Positions 7,576 through 13,925 of a stretch of 37,082 bases of DNA are shown in pieces (position 1 is the stretch's first letter; the number at the start of each line of letters is the position of its first letter). Made by a program: the position numbers and the translations under genes. A model generated the notes under the pieces. That model was given only the letters and a program-made list of their open reading frames with translations. It was not told the origin of the DNA and did not search any database. Source of the stretch: a virus (lineage: Duplodnaviria; Heunggongvirae; Uroviricota; Caudoviricetes); IMG/VR virus record IMGVR_UViG_3300031952_004642, one strand, 5' to 3'.

Positions 7576-10500
7576 TTACAGCGATTTCGACACCGCCTTG
7601 AATCCGAGACCAGCTATCGCTATCACGAGTATGACAAGAGCAAGAGCGATGCCTATCGACATCAGCGGGTCGAAAGTGGGCCCAATGAAATTCAGCATGC
7701 CCGAACGCATGCAAGTCAGCATGCCGACCGTCGTTGACTGGTCACATGCAATACCACCAGTCGGCGAAGGTATGCAAACCTTCTCAGCCGCATCACACAG
7801 ATAATCACATGTCATCCTCTGGGCAACACATGTACCAGCCCCACCACAAGTCCAGCTCTCAAGCGTATACGCATCAAGGCACTGATTGCCACCATAACAT
7901 TCGGAATCAAAACGACAGACATCTGTAGAGGTCTCATCAATGCAACCCACGTCATCATCACACAAATCAACCGCCAGACATGTCTCCTGAGAATATTCAC
8001 AAACACATTCATCCACATTACACCCAGTAAGGCTGTAGAACACACCACCCTGACAATAGGAAGGAGCACAGTCAACACTGGACTGGCACGGCAGCTCATC
8101 GATTGAATATGGAAGAGTAAATGTCGTTGATGTGCTTATGGTATCTTCATGAATCAGAACTTGTTGAGTCGCATTATACAGCCAAGCGCACCCAGTCAAT
8201 TGAAGGAAAAGTGAAAGATTCACTGGATATGTCCCATTTATAACGATAAAAGTGAACGGGAAAGTCGTAGCAACAGTAGTTGGCCTGATGGTATCCATTC
8301 CAGATGCAGTCACACTGACACGACCTCCAGTAATCGGAACATGACCCTTAGACTGGACATTCACGACAACATTCGCACCCTTCGTGAGAGTGTAAGATTT
8401 CTCAGTAAGGTAACTATATCCACCAGCGACAGCCTCAACAAACACATCTCCTGTATGGATAGCAGTCTTGTATCCTGTCTTCGATACTATGACGAGATAT
8501 TCTCTCGGATTACCAGTCGGCGTATACGTAATCTTACAGTTATCATTATCAACAGATGCCGAAAACGTGACACCAGACAAAGGCGAAACAACGAGCAGAA
8601 TCTTTCCATAACTATCAGTCGTGTAGACCATCCCATCAACGCTAACGGAAGCCCCAGATATCGGATTCTCGCTCTCATCAAAAACATAAATCGGCAATAT
8701 GTAAGACTGAGCAAGCAAGTTGACATAGAATTTCATATTATCACATGAAACAGGAACATCATAAGTAGTCTGGGTATTGATTGGCAGATAATCCATCGAA
8801 GTAAAGGTTATATCGTTCTGGAGACGCTTCGTCGTGTGCAGCAGAATAGATGACCCCTGAGACGATTCAGTGTATCCATCATTGGCGACATTCACCACTG
8901 TAACATTGGCCCCTATCGTAGTCCCTGTCAGCGGGTCTGTGTATGTCGAATAAACGATGAGCGGCAAAAACTCCTCAGTCGCAAAGTATATTCCAGTCGA
9001 GTAAAGCGGAGTTCCCCATAAGATGTAATTATAATTCGATGTCTTGCGCTCATAGGCATAAGCATATCTTCCAGTGATTGCAATCTTATCGGTGAGGCGG
9101 ATGTCCTCACTCAATGAAAAGTTCAGTAAATAGTATGGCTGCTGCGGAGTATACGTATCGAAATCGCTCGTCATCGTCCCATAGAATCCCTCCGGCTCAT
9201 CCATGCCATTATCGGGCCTTGCATACTTGAAATCATCTCCCTCACTACGGATGTAAGTAAAACCATAGTAATCCGAAACAAATCCCGAAGAAATCGTATC
9301 ATTGAAGTAATCTCCAAGACCAGCACCTACATCCAATTCCGCCATTATCCTGAAATGATTATCATCGTAAACGATTCCACGGGCCTTATAAAAACCAGTC
9401 CCACCACAACCAGTCCCCCAGAATTTAATCGCAGGTGTCGTATGATGAAGAGTGCCATTCAGATAATAGAAATCTATATGCAAAGTCCTGAGAGCCCACG
9501 TGAAAAATCCGCAACCGCCTGTACCATGACCAACACCATTAGCCCTAAGGATGGCTATCAATGGCTGGCTCGTATCCTTATGATAGAATCCAAGCGGATA
9601 ATACCGAGTGCAACTTGAAGAAGTCCCGCCACAGCCAATCGTAGTCTTAGTCCAGACAGGCGATAGAGCAGTTGGAGACGTATAAGACCAGAGCTTGGCA
9701 TTGGTGTCTCCATTCGTAGTGATTACATAATACTTGTTGTCTGGCGCATAGAACATTATATCATATGGCATCGGCTCATAAGTAGCGTTCAGGTAATTCC
9801 AGTTCGGAAGGTCATTTCCACCATAATCTGGGTCATTGAGCGGGAAATGCACAGTCTGCTGATAGGTCAACGGTGACCCAGTGAAACCATTATCAGACCA
9901 ATAGATATTAAGACCACCACCAACTACCCACAAATTCGTATTCCAAGCAAGGATGGCACAATGCTGCTCATTCTCCTGACAGGCGACCTTCGGGTCGTAC
10001 CAATGATAACCAAGAAGCGAACCAAGGTAATCTGTATAATAGACAGGAGTCCCAGCAGTATATTCCTCGGCTGGCGTATAAGCTGGAGGCTCAAAACAAT
10101 CCTCGAACTCAACCCTCGGGTCTAACCCGCCACCCAAGTCACTGCACGTCCTATATTTCAGGTAATCTGCACATACACTCCAGTCATTGCAAGACCAGTT
10201 CGGCTCATATCCCCAAATAGTCATGTTATAATCTGTATAATCATAATGGACAGAACCACCGAAAGCACCAGAAGCGCCAGTACAGACAAGATAAGTCATA
10301 AGCCAATATTCAGTGTCAGCAGTAAGAGTCAGCTCATCACTATAAGGTGTTGATGAAGAAAGCAAAGAAACCGAATCACTACCAGTATCCCAAAGATAAA
10401 CACTCCTCGAACACGAGGTCACAGCATAACCAGAATCATGGTCTTCCATATCTGTGACACTCACATTCACAAATCCAGAAGCCATGGAATTGAACGGCCT

Positions 10501-11211
10501 GAAAGACCAGTATCCCATGCCCATATTCCTGTTCTGTGCACATGCATAGCTGTCAGCAGCATCAACACGAAGATTACCACCGCAATACCCTGAACCACTC
10601 CATTTATGGGAATATCCAGCCTTTATCAAAGCAACGACCTCCTGAGCTTCGGCCAACGCAGTAGGCGCAGCACATGCAGGACTGATTTGACAACAAGCCC
10701 ATGACTGATAGGAATAACCATATGGGAAATTCCCATGCGCATCGGTATCAGTCGTATTCGTGTAATAAAGATAATCATTCCCGTCCATTTCACAGATATA
10801 ATTGGCTTCACCCCACGTGGCAGTAGTAGTAGCAGAAGAAACAGTCTTTGTCCGTGTCTCGAAAAAATCATTGGAAGAAGCATTCGCAAATCCAGTCCCA
10901 AGACTCAGGCAATTAATATTTACAGGAAATAACGGATTGCTCGCAGAGACCTGAACACTAGAAGGAGAATACCACGTATTCGTAAGCGTAAAAGTACCAG
11001 AATGCGCAGCAGTTGCCCTTAAAGTCAGATTCACCGAACATGAGCCATTCCAGAAAAAGCTTGGCATTTCAACATAATGATTTGAAGTCCCATCATCCTG
11101 AAGAACGTAATTGGCTGTATACGATGCAGAAACAGTCCAGATTGAAGATGCAACCACCAACAGGAAGGCGGTAAGCATACAACTAAATAACAGAATTTTA
11201 CTCGTGAACAT
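7576..11211 (-). CDS. Large Cys-rich secreted protein with C-terminal TM anchor (adhesin/spike candidate)
   Basis: Signal peptide; WSCNDWSVC..RTCSD TSP1-like motif; ENPISGASVSV carboxypeptidase-regulatory-like motif; Cys-rich C-terminal repeats; terminal TM. Confidence 0.8.
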   Translation of the reverse strand: MFTSKILLFSCMLTAFLLVVASSIWTVSASYTANYVLQDDGTSNHYVEMPSFFWNGSCSVNLTLRATAAHSGTFTLTNTWYSPSSVQVSASNPLFPVNINCLSLGTGFANASSNDFFETRTKTVSSATTTATWGEANYICEMDGNDYLYYTNTTDTDAHGNFPYGYSYQSWACCQISPACAAPTALAEAQEVVALIKAGYSHKWSGSGYCGGNLRVDAADSYACAQNRNMGMGYWSFRPFNSMASGFVNVSVTDMEDHDSGYAVTSCSRSVYLWDTGSDSVSLLSSSTPYSDELTLTADTEYWLMTYLVCTGASGAFGGSVHYDYTDYNMTIWGYEPNWSCNDWSVCADYLKYRTCSDLGGGLDPRVEFEDCFEPPAYTPAEEYTAGTPVYYTDYLGSLLGYHWYDPKVACQENEQHCAILAWNTNLWVVGGGLNIYWSDNGFTGSPLTYQQTVHFPLNDPDYGGNDLPNWNYLNATYEPMPYDIMFYAPDNKYYVITTNGDTNAKLWSYTSPTALSPVWTKTTIGCGGTSSSCTRYYPLGFYHKDTSQPLIAILRANGVGHGTGGCGFFTWALRTLHIDFYYLNGTLHHTTPAIKFWGTGCGGTGFYKARGIVYDDNHFRIMAELDVGAGLGDYFNDTISSGFVSDYYGFTYIRSEGDDFKYARPDNGMDEPEGFYGTMTSDFDTYTPQQPYYLLNFSLSEDIRLTDKIAITGRYAYAYERKTSNYNYILWGTPLYSTGIYFATEEFLPLIVYSTYTDPLTGTTIGANVTVVNVANDGYTESSQGSSILLHTTKRLQNDITFTSMDYLPINTQTTYDVPVSCDNMKFYVNLLAQSYILPIYVFDESENPISGASVSVDGMVYTTDSYGKILLVVSPLSGVTFSASVDNDNCKITYTPTGNPREYLVIVSKTGYKTAIHTGDVFVEAVAGGYSYLTEKSYTLTKGANVVVNVQSKGHVPITGGRVSVTASGMDTIRPTTVATTFPFTFIVINGTYPVNLSLFLQLTGCAWLYNATQQVLIHEDTISTSTTFTLPYSIDELPCQSSVDCAPSYCQGGVFYSLTGCNVDECVCEYSQETCLAVDLCDDDVGCIDETSTDVCRFDSECYGGNQCLDAYTLESWTCGGAGTCVAQRMTCDYLCDAAEKVCIPSPTGGIACDQSTTVGMLTCMRSGMLNFIGPTFDPLMSIGIALALVILVIAIAGLGFKAVSKSL

Positions 11212-11274: not shown

Positions 11275-11427
11275 ATAACGGTTTCGATGGAAAATTCATG
11301 AGCCCAAAGGCTTCCGACACGCCCATGATATATATTCTGGAGTCGGTATTTAAAAAGTTGCGATAGAAAGAAAGTAATTATGAATTCATTTTCTCGGCAT
11401 ACACGAGTTAAAATAAGGAGGTAAATC

Positions 11428-11983
11428 ATGAATGAAAATACCGAAATCCCAATACCCACACCAGCCGCACAAGAACCAATGCAAAAACGGATAATCGATA
11501 TGAGGAACGTCAACTTCGAAGTAGACCCAATGGTCGCACACAAGATTCAGACACAAATGAACGACAATCCCAGATTCGCCCAGACCATCAACACAAACAT
11601 CACGAAGCTGTTCTACGAATATCTCATGTACAAGGTCAAGATGCGTGAAAACCTGAATATCGCCATAAAAGGAGAAACTCGTTCAGGAAAGTCCACCGTC
11701 GCAATTTCGCTTGGCAATTTCATAGCATCCATGACCAGAGTCCCGTATGGCCCATTCAACATCTGCGCAAACGAGAGCGAGTACTACACAAAAGTAAGAA
11801 AAGCCAAGTTCAATGAACTATATCATATAGACGAACAAAAAGAATCGAAATTCGGAGCTGGGTCTTTCAGGGAAGAGATGGGAATTATGGATATGGACTT
11901 CATCATAAATCAAAAGAAGACCACCAGAAATCCAGAAATGAAACAGGCAATACCTGATTCACTGGAGCATTATAGCCAAGCAA
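11428..11983 (+). CDS. P-loop ATPase N-extein (exons 11428-11892, 11930-11937, 11968-11983); putative packaging/extrusion ATPase
   Basis: Walker A GETRSGKS, Walker B YHIDE. After removing two BHB introns it reads ...REEMGIMD-IQN-IIAKQ directly into the intein Cys1. Confidence 0.85.
11893..11929 (+). other. BHB-type intron 1 (37 nt, relaxed motif)
   Basis: 5' bulge ATA (11891-93), 3' bulge AAA (11928-30), central helix ATGG/CCAG with one mismatch, intron stem TGG-A-CTTC/GAAG-A-CCA. Removal gives GAT|ATC and the frame shift needed. Confidence 0.75.
11938..11967 (+). other. BHB intron 2 (30 nt, canonical)
   Basis: Exon stem AAT/ATT, central helix CCAG/CTGG, bulges AAA and AGC, intron stem TGAA-A-CAGG/CCTG-A-TTCA. 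Removes an in-frame TGA and gives CAG AA|C ATT (QNI). Confidence 0.9.
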
Positions 11984-12316
11984 TGCTTGACCTCGAACAC
12001 GAAAATATTCGTGCTGGACAAATCCTCATCTCATTTCACATCAAAGACCCTATCCGAGCTTGCTCAAATAGGTTCATTCAACGTGCTTGCGGCTGACCCG
12101 ATATGGCTGGCAAAAGGTTGGCTGAAAACTGAACCTAAAAAAGCAATTATAACATTCGCTGGGAAGAAGGCAATCAGGAAGCTGAAAACGGAAAATGGTA
12201 AACAAGTGAGCGGGAGCAACGAACATAAGCTTTACGTGAAAAGAGGAAAGAAGATTTTAAAGCTCACGATAGGCGAGATAAAATTAGGAGATGAATTGGT
12301 TTGCCTACCAAGATAG
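11984..12316 (+). mobile_element. Split intein N-half (110 aa, ends at its own stop codon)
   Basis: Starts CLTSNTKIFVLD (block A); block B-like KLKTENGKQVSGSNEHKLYV...IGEIKLGDELV; stop TAG at 12314-16. Confidence 0.85.
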
Positions 12317-13026
12317 ATATATCAAAAAAAAAGTTGGAACGACTTTACTGGAAAGAAGGTCTCTCCATCAATAAAATATCCAAAAGACTTTCGCTCAACA
12401 AGAATACTATTTATGACATGATGGTTCAAAAGCACATCCAACGAAGAAACTATTCGAATGCACTCCGTTTTTCCATCAAAGAACCAAACAAGCAAACATT
12501 AGCTTATCTCGCTGGTGTACTTGCTGGCGATGGTAATATAAATTCTAACGGAACCTTTGAATTGCAGACAATCGACCACGATTTCGCAGTTCACACATTT
12601 AATCGGCTTGATTCAATCGCCCCAGCCAAATTCATAAAACTAAAGAGAAAAACATCCGCTGGCAACCCAGTCTTCTCTATCAGATTGCATCGCAGAAAAT
12701 TCAATGACTTACTACAGAAAGTAAAGATTACGAATATAACGCACAAGAACTGGTTCATAAATGGTATTATCGATTCAGAAGCTTGTGTAAATAATTCTAA
12801 CCGAACTGTATCTATTTACATGGACAACAAGAACCTGCTGATACAAATTCAGAGTTATCTCAAATCCCAAAAAATTCATTCACGATTATATTGCAGAAAT
12901 GGATTACACTATTCACTTGTAATCATCAGGAAAGATTCAATTCTAAAATTCCATAAATATTTTCGCTTCTCAATCAAACGCAAAGAAGATAAACTTAAAC
13001 AAATCATATTAAATTATAGGAGGTAA
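12301..13026 (+). mobile_element. Free-standing LAGLIDADG homing endonuclease with N-terminal HTH
   Basis: LAYLAGVLAGDG and FINGIIDSEA motifs; separate frame from both intein halves; TTG start after GGAG. Confidence 0.9.
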
Positions 13027-13030
13027 TCAT

Positions 13031-13153
13031 ATGCATGAAATAGCAACGACCAAAATCACAGACATTCAGGAAGGCAAACCACAGGATACCTACGATATCG
13101 GCGTAAAGGATTGGCATAATTTCGTCCTTTCCAACGGTATACTGAGTTTAAAT
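13031..13153 (+). mobile_element. Split intein C-half (41 aa)
   Basis: GGAGGT RBS then ATG: MHEIATTKITDIQEGKPQDTYDIGVKDWHNFVLSNGILSLN|C. Blocks F/G present, terminal Asn, +1 Cys. Missed by the ORF track (too short). Confidence 0.9.
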
Positions 13154-13925
13154 TGTGTCCATACCATAGCCATCTGACGGCGGTAAAATGGATATACCCC
13201 TCGGACTTCATAGGATTTTTGCATAACGCACAAACCCGAAGAAAGCGAGGAACTCAGTATATGGCTTAAAGCAGAATGAGAAAATTCATCCCGCTGGCTA
13301 AGAAACCTACGGAAAAGACCTAAAGAACAAACTCATCAGATGCCTCGTTTACGATGTACGCCGCACAGTGATGGGCATGGCCACACCACTCGGCTACTTA
13401 ATCATCCCTAAGTTGGCTGAAGAAAAATATCAGCAGATGAATGAGAAAATCTGGTCGAATTACAGGCTCAACAACAAATATAAGCTCAACAGAACAGATT
13501 TTGACAGCATGTTAGAAGAAATGTATGAACAGAAAAAAGATACGTGGATTCAAAAAGAGCAGGACAGAGACTTCGGAACTCATCATGAAGAGAGATTCAA
13601 GCTCGGCGTATGGCTTGGTGAGCAGAAACAATTCATCGAGATAGACCACAAAGCTAAACAAAGGATTCTTGCGAGACAAATTTTCCGTGATTTGACCGAA
13701 GGTGAAATCGATGAGGTTGTCGAGACCGCACGAATGGGATTAAAGCTGGCAGACATCGAGAAGATGAAACAGAAACACACCAAAGATGCACGAAAAGAAG
13801 ACGAGACACTCGAAGAAGAAGAACGAGCCGAAATCGTAGCAAAAGCTGAACAAACTACCGAAAATACTGAAAAGGTTTCTGAAAACGATGAACAGGCTCC
13901 CGATGAAACCGAAAAACAGTCCTAA
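13154..13925 (+). CDS. ATPase C-extein (exons 13154-13167, 13188-13211, 13244-13268, 13302-13925)
   Basis: After removing three BHB introns: CVHTI-WIYPSDFI-ARNSVYGL-ETYGKDLKNKLIRCLVYDVRRTVMGMATPLGYLIIPK..., continuous with ORF 13368..13925. Confidence 0.85.
13168..13187 (+). other. BHB intron 3 (20 nt, canonical)
   Basis: Exon stem GTCCA/TGGAT, central helix TACC/GGTA, bulges ATA and AAA, intron stem GCC/GGC. Removal gives AT|A TGG and deletes a TGA. Confidence 0.92.
13212..13243 (+). other. BHB intron 4 (32 nt)
   Basis: Central helix CTTC/GAAG, bulges ATA and AAA, intron stem GG-A-TTT..TGC/GCA..AAA-C-CC. Removal gives AT|A GCG AGG AAC (IARN). Confidence 0.88.
13269..13301 (+). other. BHB intron 5 (33 nt)
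   Basis: Central helix GGCU/GGCU (G.U, G-C, C-G, U.G), bulges UAA and AAG, intron stem AGC..AUGAG/UUCAU..GCU. Removal gives TTA|GAA and deletes a TAA. Confidence 0.82.

Follow-up and report, generated by a model that had tools for sequence, protein, structure and literature searches.

We describe an interrupted P-loop ATPase gene in the IMG/VR virus record IMGVR_UViG_3300031952_004642 (37,082 nt; hereafter the window, meaning the whole stretch of DNA that was analysed). At positions 11984-13153 this gene most likely carries a class-1 intein that is naturally split, that interrupts the ATPase motif NIIAKQ|CVHT between its Gln and its Cys, and whose two halves would be joined by protein trans-splicing; a homing-endonuclease gene of the LAGLIDADG type stands on its own between them. 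The split layout, proposed in a preliminary description made from the letters of this DNA, has turned out to be real: it is conserved in independent metagenome loci, with purifying selection on each of the three reading frames involved. The element is an uncultivated virus-like one, probably with an archaeal host, the latter judged from the bulge–helix–bulge (BHB) introns that interrupt the same gene.

The three genes lie in the same orientation on the plus strand, each with its own open reading frame (ORF). The N-terminal intein half (IntN, 11984..12316, frame 2) starts with a Cys at 11984 (CLTSNTKIF...), runs for 110 aa (11984-12313), and ends in GDELVCLPR directly before its own TAG at 12314-12316. 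The endonuclease gene (12301..13026, frame 1) encodes 241 aa from a TTG at 12301 to a TAA at 13024-13026; its start falls inside the last IntN codons, giving a 16-nt overlap with the IntN end, and its product has a helix-turn-helix (HTH) at the N-terminus followed by two LAGLIDADG motifs (GVLAGDG and NGIIDSEA). The C-terminal half (IntC, 13031..13153, 41 aa) opens with an ATG at 13031, four bases past the endonuclease TAA, has YDIGVKDWHNFVL as its block F and LSLN as its block G, and ends ...GILSLN, with the Cys codon of the C-extein (13154-13156) next. In the window, 14 stops interrupt the IntN frame ahead of IntC and a different frame encodes the endonuclease, so that there is no contiguous intein-endonuclease ORF. 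Direct reading of the sequence bore out every detail of the coordinates and of the three-ORF layout as first described. The Leu noted there as the penultimate intein residue is also confirmed in the window, with Ala in its place in the relatives; a residue other than His at this position is nothing unusual, and the best-matching solved DnaE IntC chains also end ...ASN. The net charges of the two halves are +12 for IntN and -3 for IntC in the window, and range from +9 to +12 and from -2 to -3, respectively, across loci.

The insertion point is fixed by intein-free homologues. A search with the ATPase protein found 18 relatives, four of which (P0002, P0004, P0005, and P0019) are uninterrupted, reading ...GIMDIQNIIAKQCVHT(I/V)WIYPSDFIARNSVYGLETYGKD..., and continue through NIIAKQ|CVHT where the window has its insert, which places the intein precisely after the Q and before the C. 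The junction peptide IIAKQ|CVHTIW, predicted in the preliminary description, is the exact reading of these four homologues. Removing the intein and the five short introns in silico yields a 392-aa protein that aligns without gaps to all four. The accompanying suggestion that the mature ATPase would need RNA splicing as well fits these data, in that the match to the homologues appears only after five short segments are removed, four of which fold as BHB motifs. Residues N158, A161, and K162 of the interrupted motif are invariant across the wider ATPase family.

To collect relatives, we took contigs in which a called protein passes, out of frame, into sequence resembling IntN, and also scanned a metagenome collection; together these yielded 29 further loci, which were sorted by tblastn. 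A scan of a viral contig collection returned zero relatives, and a word-index search with the endonuclease matched only the window's own protein and an L001-type protein. The same three-gene layout is found in loci L001 and L021 (JGI samples) and in L008/L009 (ERR3804373/77). Loci L002-L007, from six SRR322340xx runs, have the two intein halves and have lost the endonuclease, and about 20 loci (L010, L012-L020, and L022-L032) are intein-free at exactly this point. The intein is present in four further independent lineages, three with the three-ORF layout (one of them, L033, cut within the endonuclease) and one, L002-L007, without the endonuclease.

Sequence identity to the window is 66-70% for IntN and 72-85% for IntC, and for the endonuclease 68% (L001) or 33% (L008). 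In the three-gene loci, IntN ends in ...GDELVC(L/Q)PR followed by a stop, and IntC begins MHEIATT... downstream of AGGAGGTAA. The endonuclease of the relatives starts at an ATG (L001, L021, L008, and L033) that sits within the GTATGC of the Val-Cys codons near the IntN end. When followed across the endonuclease region, the IntN frame of the relatives meets 11-21 stops before IntC is reached, and in L001, L021, and L002 IntN and IntC lie in different frames altogether. A stop after IntN and a Shine-Dalgarno-ATG of its own for IntC are conserved in L001, L021, L008, and L002. Pairwise ratios of nonsynonymous to synonymous substitution rates (dN/dS, Nei-Gojobori) are 0.09-0.25 for IntN and 0-0.28 for IntC, and the endonuclease of the window compared with that of L001 gives 0.13 by the same method; synonymous divergences (dS) span 0.2-1.8. 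All three frames are under purifying selection, and such low ratios in each of them imply that IntN, the endonuclease, and IntC are each read as protein.

Membership in known families was assessed by profile searches, of the kind that the preliminary description had called for, run here with Pfam. IntN matches positions 39-93 of the Intein_splicing profile (E 1e-3, 19.3 bits) and IntC positions 117-153 (E 3e-4, 21.0 bits), and the middle ORF scores 48.4 bits (E 1e-12) with LAGLIDADG_3, whose cut-off is 22.5. In the PDB, an IntC profile also finds the solved IntC chains of DnaE split inteins (E 1e-4 to 3e-4). The residues expected of a class-1 intein are in place. Cys1 stands at the exact start of the insert, and CL(T/K/I) is found in all loci; block B S78-x-x-H81 is invariant in five sequences, with its His also retained in L033 and L034 and with Ser or Asp in place of Thr; and in IntC, the Asp and His of block F (D19 and H29), the terminal N41, and the +1 residue C42 are invariant across the compared loci. 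The catalytic acids of the endonuclease, the GDG Asp (D77) and the DSE Glu (E160), are invariant in six sequences. A search of the whole window against Rfam gave zero families at gathering score; the endonuclease is hence not surrounded by a group I or group II intron.

We also modelled the complex of IntN and IntC. Three runs gave ipSAE values of 0.88, 0.88, and 0.87, compared with 0.00 for the best of 3 controls, with at least 98% contact agreement and a partner predicted local distance difference test (pLDDT) score of 85. In calibration, 58 of 80 solved complexes attained this mark, as did 2 of 110 mismatched pairs; these counts are approximate as our own alignments were used. As a modelling result, passing this mark denotes likeness to split inteins and is not a demonstration that this IntN/IntC pair binds.

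The loci without an endonuclease show what happens to the split when that gene is deleted. Relative to L008, the endonuclease of L002-L007 has lost 716 nt internally; in L002, an allele of the L008 type, the deletion is clean, at the junction GCCAGCCA|GATGATATCG. The IntN of L002 reads on into the last endonuclease codons (…ELVCQP-DDIVRYYK) and ends at a new TAA, and 13 bases past this stop the kept AGGAGGTAAATC-ATG opens IntC. Endonuclease loss left the intein split, and no contiguous intein was restored. Between L008 and L002, dN/dS for IntN is 0.086, and IntC shows zero amino-acid changes at a dS of 0.09. In the fractured-gene model (PMC2677866), this state corresponds to the stage at which the endonuclease has been lost. 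As a separate observation, L008 (1783-1800) and L002 (5771-5788) share a hairpin, ATATC-GT(G/A)A-GATAT, in the last endonuclease codons just 5' of the IntC Shine-Dalgarno; it is not present in the window or in L001, and is reminiscent of the hairpins near the endonuclease genes of fractured genes.

More distant relatives extend the picture. Among 1.84 billion representative proteins, an IntN profile found 38 matches. About 25 of these have their own C-terminus at profile position ~106-108, the mark of a split IntN, which suggests that such proteins form a wider family. L033 has an IntN only 30% identical (E 7e-17) at the same site, NIIAKQ|C, of the same ATPase; this IntN ends ...IVCRK before a stop, the endonuclease ATG is again within GTATGC, and the endonuclease matches LAGLIDADG_3 (E 5e-14). 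The L033 contig ends inside the endonuclease, hence no IntC is seen. In L034, where the host gene encodes a Zot-like ATPase, IntN ends ...LICQ plus a stop and is followed by a 43-aa HTH remnant (its ATG within ATATGT) and then by IntC. That IntN ends in Val/Ile-Cys appears to be a side effect of the endonuclease start codon. Judged from these comparisons, the IntN-endonuclease-IntC cassette is old and present in more than one host gene.

Two of these distant loci hold further inteins. In the low-GC element of L034 (2302-3769), the P-loop of the Zot-like ATPase is interrupted by two inteins with three residues between them (GKRG|intein|SGK|intein|ST). The first is contiguous, a mini-intein, and the second is the split one with the HTH remnant between its halves. 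The 841-aa protein of L035 (1563-4088; NCBI assembly GCA_964490155.1) has one contiguous intein, which contains LAGLIDADG, and finishes at its C-terminus in another stretch that resembles IntN, an arrangement that suggests one cis intein plus one split intein in a single gene.

Several features tie the endonuclease to a family of free-standing genes. Its N-terminal HTH matches the N-terminal domains of phage endonuclease families, and in L008 the whole length of the endonuclease is covered by a match to a phage endonuclease family. Homologues with 30-36% identity are separate genes directly upstream of the intein-less ATPase in L012 (1-651) and L018 (551-1351), and in L012 the stop of the endonuclease homologue overlaps the ATPase ATG.

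The translation signals of the cassette are embedded in its neighbouring coding sequences. An AGGAG (12286..12290, plus strand) stands 10 nt 5' of the endonuclease start, within intein codons for Leu-Gly-Asp (TTA GGA GAT), and the motif is also present in L001, L008, and L002. The IntC Shine-Dalgarno, AGGAGGT (13018..13024, plus strand), lies inside the final two Arg codons and the stop codon of the endonuclease. The pattern GGAGGT-N3-9-ATG occurs at two sites only in 37 kb, the ATPase start (11417-11434) and the IntC start (13019-13033), and the two initiation regions are near-identical in sequence; most other ORFs of the window have a weaker Shine-Dalgarno motif or none. The IntC start region of L008/L002 (AAGGAGGTAAATCATGCATGAAA) differs from the ATPase start of the window (AAGGAGGTAAATCATGAATGAAA) by one base. 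This likeness may reflect matched expression of the two precursors, or the initiation region may have been copied along with the endonuclease.

For the route from gene to protein we infer co-transcription, RNA splicing, trans-splicing activity, and the endonuclease target. The locus would be transcribed as a single unit, and the short BHB introns, of which two lie upstream of IntN and the other three downstream of IntC, would be removed from the mRNA. Three separate translations would then yield N-extein-IntN (ending at the TAG at 12314), the HTH-LAGLIDADG endonuclease (in the -1 frame), and IntC-C-extein. The basic IntN and the acidic IntC are predicted to associate into a Hint fold and to ligate the exteins by trans-splicing into the 392-aa ATPase, and the endonuclease would maintain the mobility of the cassette. 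We put forward more tentatively, as quite possible and no firmer than that, a wider reading: that this is the first known gene to need both BHB mRNA splicing and protein trans-splicing, that the cassette records the splitting of a mini-intein by a free-standing HTH-LAGLIDADG gene, and that IntN and IntC form a new, and perhaps orthogonal, family of natural split inteins. The splitting of a mini-intein in this way is suggested because the endonuclease ATG forces the conserved Val/Ile-Cys-x-stop end of IntN, because the last endonuclease codons carry the IntC Shine-Dalgarno, and because the IntC initiation region is a near-copy of the ATPase start, beside which relatives without the intein have a member of this endonuclease family.

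A number of observations weigh against a trans-splicing intein with a separate gene for the endonuclease in the window. The endonuclease start there is TTG, not ATG. The Pfam scores of both intein halves fall under the whole-domain cut-off of 35.8, as is to be expected because each half covers only part of the Intein_splicing model. The high score of the complex model may stem from likeness to, or memory of, solved split inteins. Finally, a BHB-like pairing found only in the window would excise 12296-13012 (717 nt) and leave ...KLGDE-IIGGNHMHEIATT... in frame and free of stops, a possibility taken up below.

The alternative that survives best, itself improbable, is that the halves no longer splice, so that the two ATPase fragments form a non-covalent two-subunit enzyme, kept together by the intein halves or by other contacts, or the gene is dead in this element. 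An unligated fragmented enzyme has been documented: the NrdA of phage Aeh1 is split by the endonuclease gene mobE, and its fragments function unligated according to PMC3045599. The replacement of the block B Thr by Ser and of the penultimate His by Leu or Ala could likewise be taken as signs of lost activity. Yet all class-1 splicing residues (Cys1, the His of blocks B and F, Asp, Asn, and the +1 Cys) are invariant across lineages separated by dS of up to ~1, and the extein halves are well conserved too. The split, moreover, falls within the most conserved core motif of the ATPase, where a permanent insert of 150 residues is unlikely to be tolerated.

A second alternative, which we regard as very unlikely, keeps the intein contiguous in RNA: the endonuclease gene would lie within a long BHB intron that the host splicing endonuclease excises, leaving a cis-splicing mini-intein. 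Archaeal rRNA introns can bear LAGLIDADG genes and offer a parallel. The same gene has five short BHB introns, which implies that the splicing machinery needed acts on this transcript. A candidate pairing also exists in the window, joining GATG at 12290-12293 with TATT at 13007-13010, with flanking helices of 5/6 and 6/6 and AAA as the second bulge. Its central helix, however, includes two G.U pairs, and the number of such matches is at shuffle expectation (3 observed, 4.1 expected). In L001 the central and inner helices each have one pair fewer, without compensation, and the homologous cut there meets a stop; in L008 and L002, candidates of the right length class are missing. A strict BHB scan recovered introns 2 and 3 and no motif linking 12280-12320 to 12990-13045, and an anchored scan of four loci (the window, L001, L008, and L002) found no conserved motif at the endonuclease borders; a relaxed scan was unspecific. 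The different frames of IntN and IntC in L001, L021, and L002 also speak against a contiguous product, and the features conserved in all loci are instead the stop after IntN and the strong Shine-Dalgarno-ATG before IntC. The pairing of 12290-12302 with 13001-13019 is probably a chance occurrence in AT-rich sequence.

The least credible alternative, with a probability that we consider negligible, is a single intein-endonuclease ORF broken by indel errors at ~12300 and ~13025, in an assembly or sequencing artefact: the frame changes do compensate each other (-1, then +1) and fall exactly at the borders of the endonuclease domain, its place in canonical inteins, yet the same frame structure recurs in independent assemblies of other samples at 30-34% amino-acid divergence, the halves of L001, L021, and L002 are out of frame with each other, the endonuclease of the relatives has its own ATG, and L002-L007 are seen in six runs. 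Such errors at the frame breaks, named in the preliminary description as what would overturn it, are ruled out by the independent loci with 11-21 stops in the IntN frame. Programmed frameshifting at the borders was also considered and rejected, since no slippery heptamer is common, by eye, to the window (GAATTGGTTTGCC) and its relatives (GAGCTGGTATGCC).

The host gene of this split intein is itself divided into short exons, all on the plus strand. The first exon of the N-extein (11428..11892) begins AAGGAGGTAAATC-ATG and encodes the Walker A (KGETRSGKST) and Walker B (YHIDEQ) motifs. It is followed by intron 1 (11893..11929, 37 nt), whose BHB, of relaxed form and with its geometry read by hand, has an A.G mismatch in the central helix; by an 8-nt micro-exon, ATCCAGAA (11930..11937); by intron 2 (11938..11967, 30 nt), a canonical BHB with the central helix CCAG/CTGG; and by the last N-extein codons, ...(N)IIAKQ (11968..11983). 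Downstream of IntC, the C-extein resumes with the +1 Cys and VHTI (13154..13167), and continues after intron 3 (13168..13187, 20 nt), a canonical BHB with the central helix TACC/GGTA and an outer helix of 8 bp, in an exon encoding WIYPSDFI (13188..13211). Intron 4 (13212..13243, 32 nt; BHB, CTTC/GAAG) separates this from an exon encoding ARNSVYGL (13244..13268), and intron 5 (13269..13301, 33 nt; BHB, GGCT/GGCT, with two G.U pairs in the central helix) precedes the remaining C-extein up to its stop (13302..13925). We took BHB geometry to be a 4-bp central helix, formed by the end of the upstream exon with the 3' end of the intron, and 3-nt bulges cut after the second base; four of the five short segments fit this geometry with the expected cut positions. 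The homologous intron 3 in L008 has CACG/CGTG, with both sides of the helix changed relative to TACC/GGTA in the window.

The ATPase itself belongs to no family that we could name: Pfam and PHROGs searches with it gave no match. A fold search of the PDB returned only weak matches, the STIV2 B204 packaging NTPase (E 0.014) as the best and RecA-like folds besides, and matches among AlphaFold clusters include Zot-N-like and AAA ATPases at TM scores of 0.3-0.4. On these models, the fold weakly resembles that of P-loop assembly or packaging NTPases.

Relatives of the ATPase gene have short in-frame or frame-shifting inserts elsewhere (P0008, P0012, P0015, and P0018; L002 5001-5552; L008 191-850). 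One of these, of 13-14 codons, lies inside Walker A, GE[FESTTAESRAVEHQ]TRSGKST, and another follows ELYH, just before IDEQ. From their sequence, they look like mini-introns at positions that have no intron in the window. Immediately upstream of the ATPase, on the minus strand of the window (7576-11211), lies the divergently oriented gene of a 1211-aa Cys-rich protein, and a similar large gene is found at the same place upstream of the ATPase in L001 and L002.

Among known systems, the closest likeness is to the fractured genes of phage metagenomes, and the comparison made in the preliminary description is apt (PMC2677866). In those genes, as here, N-extein-IntN, a separate endonuclease gene, and IntC-C-extein share one locus and one orientation, the ends of the endonuclease gene provide the upstream stop and the downstream start, and a viral origin of the loci is probable. 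A variant without the endonuclease that is nonetheless still split is known there as well (gp41-7), corresponding to L002-L007. The differences lie in the genes involved. The endonucleases of the 26 fractured loci reported by Dassa et al. (2009) are GIY-YIG or Vsr-like, and LAGLIDADG goes unmentioned in that paper (PMC2677866), whereas the endonuclease here is of the HTH-LAGLIDADG type. The interrupted genes there encode enzymes of DNA metabolism; here, the gene encodes an unclassified ATPase, has five BHB introns, and probably belongs to an element with an archaeal host.

The cyanobacterial DnaE split intein (Npu/Ssp) is similarly split at the canonical endonuclease-insertion loop, has Cys as its +1 residue and a residue other than His in the penultimate position, and is divided into halves of like size (IntN ~100 aa, IntC ~36-41 aa) with an alike IntC sequence (YDIGV..HNF.L.NG....N). 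Its halves, however, lie far apart in the genome and have no endonuclease between them. The DnaE charge pattern also seems to be unlike the strongly basic IntN and acidic IntC found here.

A third system for comparison is the cyanobacterial dnaX intein, in which a LAGLIDADG endonuclease is encoded in another frame and for which a secondary invasion of a mini-intein by an endonuclease of the free-standing kind has been proposed (bioRxiv 10.64898/2026.09.14.751524, citing Gorbalenya 1998). Common to both is a LAGLIDADG endonuclease encoded in another reading frame within an intein. In the dnaX intein, the intein frame stays open through the endonuclease, and the intein is contiguous and splices in cis, unlike the present case, where the IntN frame meets its many stops and IntC has a start of its own. 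Our literature searches, whose coverage was incomplete, found no description of a LAGLIDADG gene between the halves of a split intein.

Natural split inteins, from which protein-ligation tools are made, are few in number. The one described here adds an unusual charge pattern and several natural variants with and without the endonuclease, whose activity can be compared directly. For the virus family, three states of one site are now on record: empty, occupied by a split intein with an endonuclease gene, and occupied by a split intein without one. The same endonuclease family also occurs free-standing beside the intein-less gene, which bears on the question of whether split inteins originate by endonuclease invasion of mini-inteins. 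If the short introns are truly spliced, RNA-level and protein-level splicing would be stacked around one conserved motif of a viral ATPase.

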